A stretch of DNA of 64,000 nucleotides from Calditrichales bacterium (GCA_965267575.1 OZ254086.1:704001-768000), one strand, 5' to 3'; counted from the first letter of the stretch, positions 22,702 to 26,931 are shown. Numbers and translations are program-made. The notes: generated from the sequence alone by a model not told the origin.

Positions 22702-22923
22702 ATGTCAGATCGTGTTACCGGCACCGTTAAGTGGTTCGACGTAAAGAAGGGATACGGCTTCATCGTCGGCGATGTCGAGAAGGATATATTTGTTCACTAT
22801 ACCTCCATCCAGGGTGATGGCTTCCGCAAACTGGAAGATGGTCAGCAGGTGGAGTTTACCCTTAAGGAAGGACCAAAAGGGTTTGAAGCGACGGAATGCA
22901 CGGTGGTTGAACAATTAAGTTAA
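22702..22923 (+). CDS. Cold-shock domain protein
   Basis: 'GTVKWF...KGYGFI', 'DIFVHY', 'GFRKL.DGQ.VEF'. Confidence 0.97.
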
Positions 22924-22941
22924 AATGGATTTGACAAGACG

Positions 22942-22971
22942 AGGCGTGCCCACAAACGGTACGCCTTTTTT
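22942..22971 (+). terminator. Intrinsic terminator after the csp gene
   Basis: AGGCGTGCC/GGTACGCCT stem plus T run. Confidence 0.8.
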
Positions 22972-23010
22972 ATTGTCCTAATAGGTATACTTGATTTAAT
23001 ACTCTTCATT

Positions 23011-23027
23011 TTGCAACTTAGTTGCAA
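23011..23027. promoter_or_regulatory. Perfect 7-3-7 palindrome TTGCAAC-TTA-GTTGCAA, putative Zur/Fur-family operator
   Basis: Exact inverted repeat just downstream of TTGATT (22991-22996) and upstream of a metal-uptake operon. Confidence 0.7.
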
Positions 23028-23080
23028 CTTTTGACCATTGTGGGCATATAACTGCCCAAAGAAATTAACAACCATATCAA

Positions 23081-23383
23081 ATGATTCGCTTAAACCAGAT
23101 CGCAAAAATATCCTTGGCCAGATGGGTTGGGGTTATCCTGATCCTGTTTTTTGCCGGCACCGCTGTGATTGCTTCAGAGCAGCACAACCACAATATCGGC
23201 GAAAAAGCGGTCGATTGCCCCGCGCATATCTTAAGCGTGGCTCTTTCAGCCTGGCAGCCCGTTGGTGGGTTTTCCCTTCCGCCATTGACGGCTTCAGCTT
23301 TTGCGGGCGAATCATTCACGACTTCCTATTTTGGTGAAACAGCTACTCCCTATTTTAATAAAGCTCCGCCACTCTTCTCCTAA
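23081..23383 (+). CDS. Exported leader/uORF protein with HNH and CPAH motifs and C-terminal KAPP (DUF2946/CruR/CutF-like arrest peptide candidate)
   Basis: N-terminal hydrophobic segment, 'EQHNHN...DCPAH', C-terminal 'YFNKAPPLFS*'; lies directly ahead of the lipoprotein and TonB-dependent receptor. Confidence 0.72.
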   Translation: MIRLNQIAKISLARWVGVILILFFAGTAVIASEQHNHNIGEKAVDCPAHILSVALSAWQPVGGFSLPPLTASAFAGESFTTSYFGETATPYFNKAPPLFS

Positions 23384-23468
23384 GTAGTTTCAAACAACCG
23401 GATCATTTCGCCCAAAAGCCGCTCTAAAGGCGGCACGGCGATTTATACATAAACTTATCAGGAGAAGA
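23373..23468 (+). promoter_or_regulatory. Anti-Shine-Dalgarno stem-loop
   Basis: TCTTCTCCT (23373-23381) is exactly complementary to AGGAGAAGA (23460-23468), the RBS of 23474. Extra AGTTT/AAACT pairing and an inner GC hairpin at about 23408-23441. Confidence 0.7.
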
Positions 23469-23473
23469 ATATC

Positions 23474-23944
23474 ATGTTGAAGAATGTTCTTAAGATTTCT
23501 GTTATCGTTTTTGCTTTTCTTTTTGTCTATGCCTGTTCAGAGGATGATAACCCGGTCAGCGGAGGCGACGATCATGCCGATGCTATCGGGATGCGCATCG
23601 TTTCTTCGGGTGTAACGCTTGTTTCCTATATTGGTGATGAGGCCGTGCAAGGCTCTATCACGGTAGAAGAGGGCGTTCTTTCCGCCGGTATGGACATCGA
23701 GTTTTATAATGATGAGGACGAAAGCTGGTTTACACCGCATGAAGACGAAAACTCATTGGGTATTGAAGTTGCAGATACGAACATCGCCCAATACTGGCAG
23801 CATGAAGGCGAAGAAGGCGGTTTTGAATTTCACATCCGGGGAAAGCAGCAGGGTCAGACATCCGTTGTTTTTAGTATTCTGCACGATGAGCATGCTGACT
23901 TTGTTTCCAAAGCAATTCCCGTAGTAGTTACGGCTGATGAATGA
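23474..23944 (+). CDS. Acidic, His-containing lipoprotein (putative metal-binding partner of the receptor)
   Basis: Lipobox 'VYAC'; 'DDHAD', 'PHEDE', 'QHEGEE', 'LHDEHADF'. Confidence 0.8.
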   Translation: MLKNVLKISVIVFAFLFVYACSEDDNPVSGGDDHADAIGMRIVSSGVTLVSYIGDEAVQGSITVEEGVLSAGMDIEFYNDEDESWFTPHEDENSLGIEVADTNIAQYWQHEGEEGGFEFHIRGKQQGQTSVVFSILHDEHADFVSKAIPVVVTADE

Positions 23945-26172
23945 GTCTGACATACATTAGAACTGCATTAGTAACGACATTTTGTCTTTTTACAGTTTTG
24001 GCTGCACGGTCCACCATGCCGCGCAGCCAAAGCTATTTATCCGGCAAAGTAATTGACGTTTCCACGCAACTGCCGGTACCTTACGCCGATATTGTCATTT
24101 CAGAGATAAACCGCTCCGCACAAACGGACAGCGACGGCAATTTCATGCTGCCCAATCTTCCTGAAGGCACTTTTACAGCTAAGGTATTGCACGTGGCCTA
24201 CCGCGAAGGACGCTTTTCAGTTATGCTTACCGCCAGGGACACCACGAACGTCCTGTTTACGCTACGCCCCAATTCGCTTTCCACGGAGGATATTGTTGTA
24301 GTTGGAGAACGCGAGGATATATCCGAATTGGAGAAGGCGGCTGTGGACGTGAGCGGGGAAAAGCTGCGCAAAAACCTGGGTTTGACCATCGCCGAGACAA
24401 TCGATCAGGAAGCAGGGCTGGCACAACGCACACTGGGTCCTGCTCCGGCGCGCCCCGTTATCCGCGGCCTTGACGGTGACCGCGTGCTGATCGTTCAGGA
24501 TGGCGACCGCAATGGCGACTTGTCCGCGACAGCTTTTGACCATGCCGTGGCTATAGACCCGCTTACCTCAAACCGCATTGAAGTGATCCGCGGGCCGCGC
24601 GCGCTGACGCTGGGCTCGAACACGCTGGGCGGTGTTGTAAATGTAGTGCGCGAAACCGTGCCCAACAGCATGCCGCAAAAAATTACCGGTTCAGCGGGTT
24701 TAACCGGTGAGACTGTGAACAACGGCTACGCCGGAGGGCTAAGCTTAAAAGCGCCCGTACAGCCCTTTGTGCTGCACCTGGATGGCAGCTACCGCGAAGC
24801 AGGCGAGCTCCAGACTCCCGAAGGTACACTCAGAAATACATCGCTGTTGACGCAAAGCGCGGCAGCCGGCATCAGCTGGATTCAATCATGGGGACATCTT
24901 GGCGTGGCCGCTGACGTGTATCTCTCGGAGTATGGCATCCCGCCCGATGAGAACGGCCGGACCGGTATCCACAAAAACGGCATCGATATAAACATGGAGC
25001 GCAGCAAGTGGCAATCCACCGCGGAGCTGATAGCACCAGTTGACGGTATTCGCCGCATTGAAGCGGAGTATGATTACACCCGTTACCAGCACAAGGAATT
25101 TGAGCGACAGGATATTCTCGGTTCCGAATTTGGGCTGATCACACAAAATACCAAGCTGAACATTTATGCTGCCGACAACTCCTGGCTCAAAAACGCGCAA
25201 ATCGGCCTGTGGCGTGAATTCCGTGATTTCGCTTCCGGCGCACGGGCCACCACACCTGCCACGGAAGAAATCTCATGGGCGGGCTATGCCTACAATGAGT
25301 TCAAGCTGGGCAGTCTGCAAAGCAGCGTAGCTCTGCGTTTCGAAAGCAAAAATGTGAACCCCGTGAAGCGCGATACTGTCTTTAATGTGGGCGTTATCCG
25401 TGAACGAAACTTCACCAACTGGGCCGCGGCCCTGAAAACCCGGCTGCCGCTCAATAAGCACTACTATGTTAGTGGCGGCATTATCCGTTCGTTCCGGGCG
25501 CCGAGCGTGGAGGAGCTTTTTTCCAACGGCCCGCACCTGGCCGCCTACTCTTTTGAGATCGGCAATCCCGACCTGGATGAAGAAGAAACCCTGGGCGCAG
25601 AAGTGACAGCCGGCTACAGCTCAGACGATCTGGATATAAATTTAACCCTTTTCCATAACCGTATTGACGGTTACCTCTACCCGGCATTTACCGGCAAGAA
25701 GAGCGGCCGCCGCGCCGACCTGGACCTCTACCGCGTCGTTGGGCAGGATGTGACCATGCAGGGTTTTGAGTCAACGGCCGATCTTAGACTCGGCCACCAT
25801 TTCCAGGTCGACGGAACGCTGAGCTATGTCGAGGGCACAATCCGCAATAATGATGAACCGTTGCCCCGTATCCCTCCATTTACATATTCGTTGGGTTTAA
25901 ACCACAAGTGGAACGGCCTCACCAGCGGCATTAAAATGCGCGGCGCTTCCAGCCAGCAAAGAACCGGTGAATTTGAGACATCCACACCAGCCTACGTTGT
26001 TTTCGATCTTTACGCGGAGTACCTGCTACAGGGAGGCGGTCTGCTGCACAGTTTCTCGCTGGCAGTGGAAAATACGCTCGACACGACCTACCGCCAGCAC
26101 CTTAACCGCATAAAGGACATTACGCCGGAAGCCGGACGTGATTTTCGGCTGCTGTATAAAGTGTTTTTTTAG
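23941..26172 (+). CDS. TonB-dependent receptor, ZnuD-like, with N-terminal carboxypeptidase-regulatory-like domain
   Basis: Plug 'GPAPARPVIRGLDGDRV', 'DHAVAIDP...IEVIRGP..L.LGSN..GGVVN'; 'RAPSVEELFSNGPH...FEIGNPDL'; C-terminal Phe. Confidence 0.9.
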   Translation: MSLTYIRTALVTTFCLFTVLAARSTMPRSQSYLSGKVIDVSTQLPVPYADIVISEINRSAQTDSDGNFMLPNLPEGTFTAKVLHVAYREGRFSVMLTARDTTNVLFTLRPNSLSTEDIVVVGEREDISELEKAAVDVSGEKLRKNLGLTIAETIDQEAGLAQRTLGPAPARPVIRGLDGDRVLIVQDGDRNGDLSATAFDHAVAIDPLTSNRIEVIRGPRALTLGSNTLGGVVNVVRETVPNSMPQKITGSAGLTGETVNNGYAGGLSLKAPVQPFVLHLDGSYREAGELQTPEGTLRNTSLLTQSAAAGISWIQSWGHLGVAADVYLSEYGIPPDENGRTGIHKNGIDINMERSKWQSTAELIAPVDGIRRIEAEYDYTRYQHKEFERQDILGSEFGLITQNTKLNIYAADNSWLKNAQIGLWREFRDFASGARATTPATEEISWAGYAYNEFKLGSLQSSVALRFESKNVNPVKRDTVFNVGVIRERNFTNWAAALKTRLPLNKHYYVSGGIIRSFRAPSVEELFSNGPHLAAYSFEIGNPDLDEEETLGAEVTAGYSSDDLDINLTLFHNRIDGYLYPAFTGKKSGRRADLDLYRVVGQDVTMQGFESTADLRLGHHFQVDGTLSYVEGTIRNNDEPLPRIPPFTYSLGLNHKWNGLTSGIKMRGASSQQRTGEFETSTPAYVVFDLYAEYLLQGGGLLHSFSLAVENTLDTTYRQHLNRIKDITPEAGRDFRLLYKVFF

Positions 26173-26276: not shown

Positions 26277-26489
26277 ATGGCAAAGAAACAAACCTTTGGT
26301 GATAAGCTAAAAAAAACAGGCGGAGATCAGGGTAAATCGGTAAAAGTTGTTTTCAGCTATACGTCGCCAAAGAACGGTGAGATGAAATTTGCTGAGAAGA
26401 TCATCAAAGTATTGCCCGGTGATAACGAGGACCAGCTTGTCAATCAGGAAATAAAGAACGGCCGTGCGCTTTTGGAAGCCAAAGCCTAA
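26277..26489 (+). CDS. DUF4295/bL38-like small basic protein
   Basis: 'MAKK' start and 'SPKNG...F.E.I' motif; immediately precedes rpmB-rpmG. Confidence 0.65.
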   Translation: MAKKQTFGDKLKKTGGDQGKSVKVVFSYTSPKNGEMKFAEKIIKVLPGDNEDQLVNQEIKNGRALLEAKA

Positions 26490-26504
26490 TACAGGAGAAT
26501 AGTA

Positions 26505-26747
26505 ATGTCCAGAGTATGTAAACTTACCGGTAAAAGGCCGCTGGTTGGTAACAATGTGTCGCACTCGAACAACAAGACCAAAATGCGCCAACTGCCGAAT
26601 CTGCAAACCAAGCGCATTTTTGTAAGCGAACTGAACCGCTTTGTGCGCATCAAGCTTTCTGCCCGCGCCCTAAAAACAATCAACCGTAAAGGTTTGATGA
26701 CCTACTTGTCGCAAAAAGGACTGAAGCTTTCCGACGTGGAAGCCTAG
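26505..26747 (+). CDS. rpmB: 50S ribosomal protein L28 (lacks Zn-ribbon Cys set)
   Basis: 'MSRVCKLTGK....GNNVSHSNNKTK....PNLQ.KR'; only one Cys. Confidence 0.97.
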   Translation: MSRVCKLTGKRPLVGNNVSHSNNKTKMRQLPNLQTKRIFVSELNRFVRIKLSARALKTINRKGLMTYLSQKGLKLSDVEA

Positions 26748-26769
26748 TTAAAAAGAAAGGCAACGAAAA

Positions 26770-26931
26770 ATGGCAAAAGCAGGAGCTCGCGAGATTATAA
26801 AGCTGAAAAGCACAGAAAGCTCTTTTATGTATTCCACAAAGAAAAATAAAAGAAACACGACGCAAAAACTGGAAATCAAAAAATACGATCCCATCGTGCG
26901 CAAACACGTGCTTTTTAAAGAATCCAAGTAA
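26770..26931 (+). CDS. rpmG: 50S ribosomal protein L33, Cys-free form (53 aa, absent from the ORF track)
   Basis: Translated by hand: [53 protein letters not shown]. Confidence 0.97.

Follow-up and report, generated by a model that had tools for sequence, protein, structure and literature searches.

A 64,000-nucleotide stretch of the genome of a Calditrichales bacterium (GCA_965267575.1 OZ254086.1:704001-768000; hereafter the window) carries on its + strand three closely spaced open reading frames (ORFs), the first of which we propose to be a metal-responsive leader peptide. This unannotated ORF of 100 codons (23081-23383) ends 90 nt before the gene for a 156-residue lipoprotein (Cys21; 23474-23944), and the third gene, encoding a ZnuD-like TonB-dependent receptor of 743 residues (23941-26172), begins 4 nt inside the end of the lipoprotein gene, so that its start overlaps the stop of the latter. 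Upstream, 54 nt ahead of the leader ATG, lies a perfect 7-3-7 palindrome (TTGCAAC-N3-GTTGCAA; 23011-23027, assigned to neither strand), a candidate Fur-family (Zur-like) repressor operator. The account that we regard as probable is that the small ORF encodes an exported sensor leader of the DUF2946 kind, and that ribosome arrest near its end, together with masking of the Shine-Dalgarno (SD) sequence, controls translation of the lipoprotein and receptor genes.

In the leader, Arg and Lys precede a hydrophobic segment, a presumed signal peptide or signal anchor spanning approximately residues 10 to 32 (23108-23176), over which hydropathy in a 15-residue window exceeded 1.6 for starts at residues 7 to 19 and peaked at 2.76. 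This profile is compatible with an export signal or signal anchor, and hydrophobic N-termini aligned in all relatives; the preliminary description of this DNA had named an export signal, and of that claim the hydrophobic segment stands, while export itself is presumed. A presumed metal-ligand region, H35-N-H37 ... C46-P-A-H49, follows at 23183-23227, and the C-terminus reads N-K-A-P-P-L-F-S-stop, with the KAPP codons (23360-23371), the presumed arrest site, three residues from the stop. The 100-residue upstream ORF (uORF), its HNH...CPAH motif, and its NKAPPLFS ending are all as that description had them.

Few leaders of this kind are present in protein databases because such small ORFs are seldom called. 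A single-sequence search returned one match only, 90% identical, and a profile search returned six or seven leaders, that is, fewer than 10 among 5.8 billion proteins. The single leader sequence had no match among metagenome contigs, and its look-alikes in the ESM Atlas, which serve as leads only, were unnamed clusters (Verrucomicrobiota and Acidobacteriota being the commonest phyla) and DUF2607. Relatives of the lipoprotein were found in 9 of 41 related genomes, and an ORF of about 100 codons ending in [RK][AGS]PP lay upstream of the lipoprotein gene, in the same layout, at all eight strong loci; a weak lipoprotein match in genome G028 (locus L009, a 535-residue ORF, E = 2.4e-4) was left out as not comparable. 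In a first alignment of these leaders, at approximately 20% identity, only the start Met, H35, H37, C46, P96, and P97 were invariant. A leader profile searched in six frames matched 56 of 86 genomes of the phylum, including 39 of 53 high-quality ones. Set against the handful recovered by protein search, this count means that the leaders are mostly unannotated and that genome annotation therefore misses a regulatory layer.

The preliminary description had proposed conservation of the stall motif and of the His/Cys motif among homologous uORFs as a check, and both were conserved. The ORF ended in [RK][AGS]PP followed by 1 to 11 residues at all 30 loci read. Across an alignment of 35 sequences with a mean column identity of 29%, H35, H37, and C46 were invariant, and N36, P47, P96, and P97 reached at least 90%. 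The window motif is C-P-A-H, not CxxC or CxxxC, and among relatives the first Cys alone was invariant, the fourth position being Y, H, F, I, or A. The distance from this Cys to the Arg or Lys of the stall motif was 48 to 51 residues in 28 of 28 leaders, and HxH lay 11 to 14 residues ahead of the Cys; L018 and L019, which have no ATG start within the set range, were excluded from the spacing count and from the corresponding alignment (A2). Many relatives have a second hydrophobic stretch 3' of the Cys motif. Ligand residues, a stall motif, and a fixed ruler, with little else kept, are what a co-translational sensor leader, not a folded protein, should look like. We regard the ORF as a real, conserved, and unannotated leader-peptide switch of the CruR/CutF kind. 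The arrangement also occurs outside the phylum, a lipoprotein gene with an upstream xPP leader being present at 16 of 19 loci from genome contigs, and the records containing both include Calditrichia, Gemmatimonadetes, Latescibacterota, Balneolaceae/Gracilimonas, and Bacteroidetes. At L085, L089, L090-L092, L094, L096, L098, and L099, the sensor motif ranged from C-P-V-H to C-P-V-C and spacers from 100 to 330 nt.

To place the family, we turned to the Pfam model for DUF2946, PF11162. A six-frame search of the phylum with this model recovered a few leaders in which C-P-[VI]-C is preceded by His-rich stretches and the peptide closes with RAPP. PF11162, whose cut-off is 23.7 bits, matched four of the five in-phylum CxxC leaders, with a best score of 27.2 bits. 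Comparison of the 35-sequence family with these five leaders by hhalign gave a probability of 97.7% (E = 1.7e-12 over 87 columns), aligning HNH onto the His stretch, C-P-A-[YH] onto C-P-V-C, and RAPP onto RAPP, and one locus (G062:C57) was matched by both PF11162 and the leader-family profile. Given the profile alignment, the PF11162-positive leaders, and the doubly matched locus, the window leader is by homology a branch of the DUF2946 superfamily in which the second Cys is replaced by Tyr, His, or Phe and HxH is invariant, and its original assignment to the CruR/CutF type holds. On the - strand of the doubly matched locus (L043), two leader ORFs occur in tandem (oriented 931-1227 and 1399-1728) before a homolog of the His-rich lipoprotein; the first ends in KAPP, and the second ends in RAPP and has the CxxC motif.

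The nucleotides directly after the second Pro codon (23373-23381), which comprise the last leader codons and the first base of the leader stop, form a perfect 9-nt complement of the SD arm of the lipoprotein gene (AGGAGAAGA; 23460-23468), which contains AGGAG and lies 5 nt before the ATG at 23474. In the minimum free energy fold of 23340-23490, these two arms paired over 9 bp, 23386-23390 paired with 23451-23455, and an inner G+C hairpin (23408-23441) formed within the long-range stem, so that the perfect complement to the ribosome-binding site (RBS), the additional 5-bp pairing, and the inner hairpin of the preliminary description are each confirmed. The fold had a free energy of -32.2 kcal/mol (z = -2.43), with 2 of 200 shuffles as good. 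The inner hairpin has no T-run and so does not resemble an intrinsic terminator. Perfect complements of at least 9 nt to the RBS window arose in 60 of 20,000 tail shuffles and in 27 of 12,755 other 30-nt segments of the 64-kb window.

Because nucleotide alignment of the spacers was impossible, we compared cognate with non-cognate duplexes across 30 loci. The tail was taken from the Arg or Lys codon to 6 nt past the stop and the RBS window from -22 to +6 around the start codon, with start codons assigned by an SD-scoring rule and three set by hand (L013, L019, and L021). Cognate tail-RBS duplexes averaged -14.84 kcal/mol, compared with -11.64 for 870 non-cognate pairs, and in a column permutation of tail-RBS pairs 0 of 20,000 sums were as low as that observed. 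The cognate duplex ranked first of 30 at six loci and within the top 5 at 15 of 30; the window locus (-16.2) ranked fifth. Duplexes were stronger where spacers were short, averaging -16.9 at 110 nt or less (n = 14) and -13.0 at longer spacers (n = 16). The complementary stretches varied by locus and extended past the CCUCC/GGAGG core into its flanks, and such locus-specific complements may be read, at the level of sequence, as the equivalent of covariation. The first Pro codon was CCT at 17 of 30 loci, compared with 59 of 310 Pro codons of the downstream genes, and together with the next CC it spells CCUCC, the anti-SD core; in most relatives the anti-SD consists of the Ala-Pro-Pro codons themselves. 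Of all segments of a locus, the one that the tail bound best overlapped the RBS at 10 of 30 loci, where chance predicts approximately 0.1 per locus.

These observations suggest a mechanism. In free mRNA, the last codons of the leader would pair with 23460-23468 and close the lipoprotein SD. A ribosome paused at K-A-P-P, its P site on the codon for Pro96 and its A site on that for Pro97 (23366-23371) by analogy with CruR, would cover the anti-SD arm in its mRNA channel; counted from the first base of the presumed P-site codon, this arm begins 7 nt downstream. The lipoprotein RBS would be open for as long as the pause lasts, and the stem would re-form after termination. The length of the pause would be set by the HxH...C ligand cluster, fixed 48 to 62 residues behind the stall site. 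At the pause, the Cys 48 to 51 residues and the HxH approximately 60 residues from the peptidyl-transferase center would have just left the tunnel and would lie at the translocon or past it. Metal binding in that place, or folding, could alter the force that pulls on the nascent chain. For uptake genes such as these the sign known from CruR is expected, a long pause without metal turning the operon on and a metal-bound nascent chain releasing the ribosome and turning it off. A Fur-family (Zur-like) operator upstream would probably add transcriptional control. Consistent with unmasking, adding to a partition-function model a stalled-ribosome footprint whose P site lies on the first Pro codon raised the modelled probability that the SD is unpaired at the window locus from 0.19 to 0.52, and a control footprint left it at 0.19.

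Several results weigh against this proposal. PF11162 matched neither the window peptide (E up to 1), nor nine members of the family (E up to 10), nor anything in the whole genome (E up to 1). A recognizable SD was absent before the window leader (23060-23080) and before most leader ORFs at the L010-L017 positions; the genes behind these leaders have strong SDs, unlike the leader ORFs themselves. At the window locus, 5 of 95 other segments bound the tail better than the RBS did, and RBS pairing was weak or absent at approximately 10 of 30 loci (L011, L021, L028, L029, L031, L033, L034, L035, L037, and L038), most of which have long spacers. Modelled unmasking reached a gain of at least 0.3 at only 4 of 30 loci, the family mean rising from 0.28 to 0.37. 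The loci are moreover kin, with several near-duplicate pairs, and the permutation statistics overstate their independence. Two points of the preliminary description are accordingly upheld in part. Covariation of the anti-SD stem in relatives has its counterpart in cognate pairing above chance, but not in every relative, as the RBS was the best target at a minority of loci; and release of the RBS by a paused ribosome was reproduced by the model at the window locus but at few others. At L029 and L031, both with long spacers, a local hairpin directly 5' of the SD provides the anti-SD and the leader tail is unpaired with the RBS, which suggests a relay or a different mechanism there.

The most pointed objection concerns the stall motif itself. 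The window leader has Lys94 where 26 of 30 related loci have Arg, and all 19 substitutions of this Arg are reported to abolish arrest in ApcA, ApdA, and ApdP, with Arg essential in SecM too (PMC12992588). The preliminary description had noted the replacement of Arg by Lys as one mark of a variant, but on these data the change is not a harmless one; Arg proved irreplaceable in the peptides tested, and arrest at KAPP is accordingly only presumed. Lys variants nevertheless recur at no fewer than nine loci of several genera (the window, L011, L013, L021, the first leader of L043, L056, L070, L071, and L073), all of them Asn-Lys-[Ala/Ser]-Pro-Pro. Asn precedes Lys in 9 of 9 Lys variants, whereas many different residues precede Arg in the Arg forms. 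Asn-Lys-[Ala/Ser]-Pro-Pro thus looks like a maintained sub-motif rather than a decayed copy. The Lys form may give a weaker pause, possibly sensitive to elongation factor P (EF-P) as described for CutF (bioRxiv 10.1101/2025.02.05.636593).

Beyond the leader and its pairing, we examined how the transcription unit is bounded and regulated. A terminator-like hairpin with a T-run on the + strand (22941-22967), found by a terminator scan 3' of a cold-shock gene (22702-22923; Pfam CSD match), delimits the leader's transcription unit on its 5' side. The same kind of scan found no sigma-70-type promoter or intrinsic terminator between the leader and the lipoprotein gene. No Rfam family matched within 22900-23600 at E up to 1, so no known riboswitch accounts for the region. 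The exact palindrome had one other copy in the 4.73-Mb genome, with a one-mismatch copy 38 nt from it, and this second site lies between divergent genes for a Fur-family protein and a MerC-like membrane protein. In the window genome these Fur-family and MerC-like His/Cys-rich genes diverge around the two palindromes at L075 1014-1981 (G000:C1, boxes at approximately 3244401-3244455). The Fur-family gene matched Pfam FUR and, below both cut-offs, the NCBIfam models Zur (44.7 bits) and Fur (44.1 bits). At up to two mismatches the palindrome had nine matches, as did a reversed-pattern control, and it was not found upstream of the leader at 29 other loci, the best candidates having 4 to 8 mismatches, like controls. 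Because its copies stand at a Fur-family gene, the palindrome is likely a Fur-family operator, plausibly for Zur, in line with the transcriptional operator that had been suggested above the leader. Directly 3' of the receptor gene are three small ORFs (26277-26931), the first a weak match to DUF4295 (E = 0.086). The second and third we take to resemble ribosomal proteins L28 and L33, the L33-like product being without Cys pairs.

Which metal such a switch would sense was considered from the genes downstream. The receptor contains the Pfam domains CarbopepD_reg_2, Plug, and TonB_dep_Rec_b-barrel, and its best NCBIfam model was ZnuD (NF038289), at 196.1 bits against a cut-off of 950; by this score it is ZnuD-like, not a ZnuD equivalog. 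The lipoprotein had no match in Pfam and no useful one in NCBIfam or in a sequence search of the PDB. His34, His137, and His140 are invariant in its alignment, and its AlphaFold2 model is an Ig-like beta-sandwich (pLDDT, the predicted local distance difference test score, 87.9) for which a structure search returned generic Ig-like PDB entries only, at template modeling scores of 0.47 or less. Two types of operon stood behind the leaders at the 19 wider loci read. Type A, that of the window, comprises leader, His-rich lipoprotein, and ZnuD-like receptor and occurred at 7 of 19, and one locus matched none of the queries. Type B comprises leader, an outer-membrane protein of approximately 430 residues, and a ZnuA-family binding protein, with ZnuA at 11 of 11 loci (Pfam ZnuA E = 9e-48 and 1.6e-51) and an ABC-3 permease at 9 of 11. 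Since both operon types carry zinc-type genes, the metal sensed is probably zinc, and the zinc-related targets of the preliminary description find support in the ZnuD-like receptor and in the ZnuA and ABC-3 genes of relatives. The type-B outer-membrane protein belongs to no Pfam or NCBIfam family and may be an unnamed metal porin. It has approximately 420 to 440 residues, with a signal peptide followed by a coiled-coil-like N-terminus, and lies between leader and ZnuA in every type-B operon (for example L055:6524-7846 on the - strand; the same gene is in L057, L060-L067, L072, and L018-L039).

The same mechanism with copper, or nickel or manganese, as ligand in place of zinc is a doubtful but serious alternative. 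All characterized DUF2946 leaders are, in the reports that describe them, copper sensors (PMC9426467, PMC9973294), a His2-Cys cluster is able to bind copper, and the receptor matches the TonB-copper model (80 bits) as well as OprC. However, among the relatives of the receptor ZnuD leads by a wide margin, in bit score and among solved structures (4rdr, E = 3.7e-36, compared with 2.8e-8 for the copper porin OprC), and ZnuA with ABC-3 stands behind the same leader family. No copper-handling genes (PCuAC, Sco, CopC/D, multicopper oxidase, or PepSY_TM) were seen in the loci read, and with its second Cys lost the site departs from the classic Cu(I) CxxC. Less favorable to zinc, the ZnuA-type proteins scored 90 bits with the zinc model AztC and 77 bits with the manganese model MntC, both far below cut-offs, and they lack a His-rich loop. 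We advance only tentatively, as a possibility, the full form of a nascent-chain switch that senses zinc and would be the first of the CruR/CutF class to respond to a metal other than copper, in which the His2-Cys cluster would bind zinc and release a pause at an Arg-less Asn-Lys-Ala-Pro-Pro, the neighboring codons would serve as anti-SD, and the whole would lie under a Zur-type operator.

Arrest could also act on transcription. With the same leader and the same stall, the output may be as in CruR, the stalled ribosome blocking Rho loading on the C-rich leader end and spacer, release leading to termination, and the SD stem being secondary or additive. CruR is reported to act in this manner before a TonB receptor (PMC9426467). 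The genome encodes Rho, and 23320-23439 is C-rich and G-poor (GC skew -0.44 and -0.29), although this C excess is in part the pyrimidine-rich anti-SD arm. Loci with long spacers (131 to 323 nt) mostly lack tail-RBS pairing and so need another mechanism, and there the Rho route may be the main one. At the window, in contrast, the spacer is short and mostly base-paired in the prediction, which disfavors Rho loading, and cognate-specific RBS pairing would have no role under a pure Rho mechanism; we consider it unlikely that termination is the principal output here. Least probable of all, and in our view hardly to be expected, is that the small protein is a working part of metal uptake, a periplasmic or membrane metal-handling peptide with no metal-dependent arrest, its Pro-Pro tail and stem reflecting ordinary translational coupling or mRNA stability: the second hydrophobic stretch recalls a two-helix membrane protein, Lys stands where the tested arrest peptides need Arg, and any terminating ribosome would briefly open a stem whose anti-SD arm overlaps the stop codon, but ligand residues and xPP alone are conserved while the remainder drifts to approximately 20% identity, the fixed Cys-to-stall spacing suits a co-translational sensor and not a folded protein, RxPP-like motifs are reported to be strongly avoided in proteomes and concentrated C-terminally in the small exported products of uORFs (PMC12992588), and the related DUF2946 leaders have demonstrated regulatory roles.

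Arrest combined with SD masking in a DUF2946-type leader thus remains the account that we favor, and it would matter chiefly for what it adds to metal uptake. The leader family offers a natural series of stall motifs (RAPP, RGPP, RSPP, and Asn-Lys-Ala-Pro-Pro) and of SD-pairing designs that is useful for testing what arrest needs. Control of zinc uptake in bacteria is generally ascribed almost wholly to Zur, acting on transcription. With a nascent-peptide sensor in front of ZnuD-like receptors and ZnuA/ABC-3 importers, uptake would gain a second and faster layer of control that tracks periplasmic metal, and the copper-only CruR/CutF paradigm would extend to another metal. If the zinc-sensing form is correct, the Arg held to be indispensable would not be strictly needed for arrest, and zinc uptake across a phylum would be tuned at the translational level.

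The kind of leader is already in print, and the gain is incremental rather than fundamental. The preliminary description put it too strongly in holding a non-copper, non-proteobacterial form to be undescribed: the 5,334 CutF-like proteins reported in PMC9973294 include some from Bacteroidota and Actinomycetota, with sensor motifs of Cys, His, or both and with TonB-like neighbors among them, and RAPP or RGPP uORFs upstream of TonB receptors are reported throughout Gram-negative bacteria (PMC12992588). What we did not find in print are the zinc-type context, the HxH...Cxx[HYF] branch, the Asn-Lys-Ala-Pro-Pro form, and stall codons that double as anti-SD, a statement that covers published text outside the supplementary lists of PMC9973294 and PMC12992588, which may hold cases. 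The word "zinc" does not occur in PMC9426467, in the bioRxiv version of PMC9973294, or in the 2025 CutF preprint, so far as the text of each was available, and "zinc", "ZnuA", and "Shine-Dalgarno" are all absent from the main text of PMC12992588.

Among known systems, the solved structure nearest to the receptor is that of Neisseria meningitidis ZnuD (PDB 4rdr), and a Fur-family-type palindrome is present in the window promoter region. The window receptor differs in its score, far under the ZnuD cut-off (196 against 950 bits), and in an extra N-terminal CarboxypepD_reg domain. We know of no leader-peptide control for ZnuD. With ApdA, ApdP, ApcA, and the RAPP uORFs the family shares a C-terminal R-[AG]-P-P in small exported proteins upstream of a regulated gene, R[AGS]PP occurring in 26 of 30 relatives. 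Unlike these, the window leader has Lys, with Asn before it in every Lys variant, for which the published mutagenesis predicts no arrest (PMC12992588), and what it senses is presumably a metal and not the activity of Sec or YidC.

The family can also be compared with CruR (Bp2923) of Bordetella pertussis. CruR is described as a DUF2946 leader with CxxC and RAPP that precedes a TonB receptor and acts via Rho, and the spacing of its C90, C93, and R139 is conserved and functionally important (PMC9426467); in vitro it arrests at RAPP, the P site holding Pro3 and the A site Pro4 (PMC12992588). Both are small leader ORFs that open an operon in which a TonB-dependent metal receptor is the next major product. 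Each encodes an export signal at the N-terminus (a presumed one in the window leader, from its hydrophobic segment) and a Cys metal motif approximately 46 to 50 residues from a C-proximal xAPP, three residues before the stop. The ruler from C90/C93 to R139 matches the 48-51 residue Cys-to-Arg ruler of the window family. Unlike CruR, with CxxC, RAPP, and a 162-nt spacer subject to Rho-dependent termination, the window leader has HxH...CxxH, KAPP, and a 90-nt spacer with an SD-masking stem. The window operon places a His-rich lipoprotein gene between those for leader and receptor and lacks a PepSY_TM gene, its receptor is ZnuD-like whereas that of CruR belongs to the CrtA/BfrG family, the phylum is another, and PF11162 is silent on the window peptide.

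In its proposed mode of action the window leader resembles the DUF2946 leader CutF (cutFOG operon of Rhodobacter capsulatus), which is reported to melt an SD-masking stem by stalling (PMC9973294; bioRxiv 10.1101/2025.02.05.636593). Shared features are an exported DUF2946-type leader, with export presumed for the window, a C-terminal Pro-rich stall proposed to melt the stem that hides the SD of the next gene, and, presumably, a leader that works in cis only. CutF carries CxxxC and an EF-P-sensitive PPP motif and turns on a detoxifying oxidase at high copper, whereas the uptake targets in the window lead us to expect the opposite sign. In contrast to CutF, where the anti-SD is a separate intergenic element, the predicted anti-SD of the window is the tail of the leader ORF itself, and in most relatives it is formed by the Ala-Pro-Pro codons at which the ribosome would pause.

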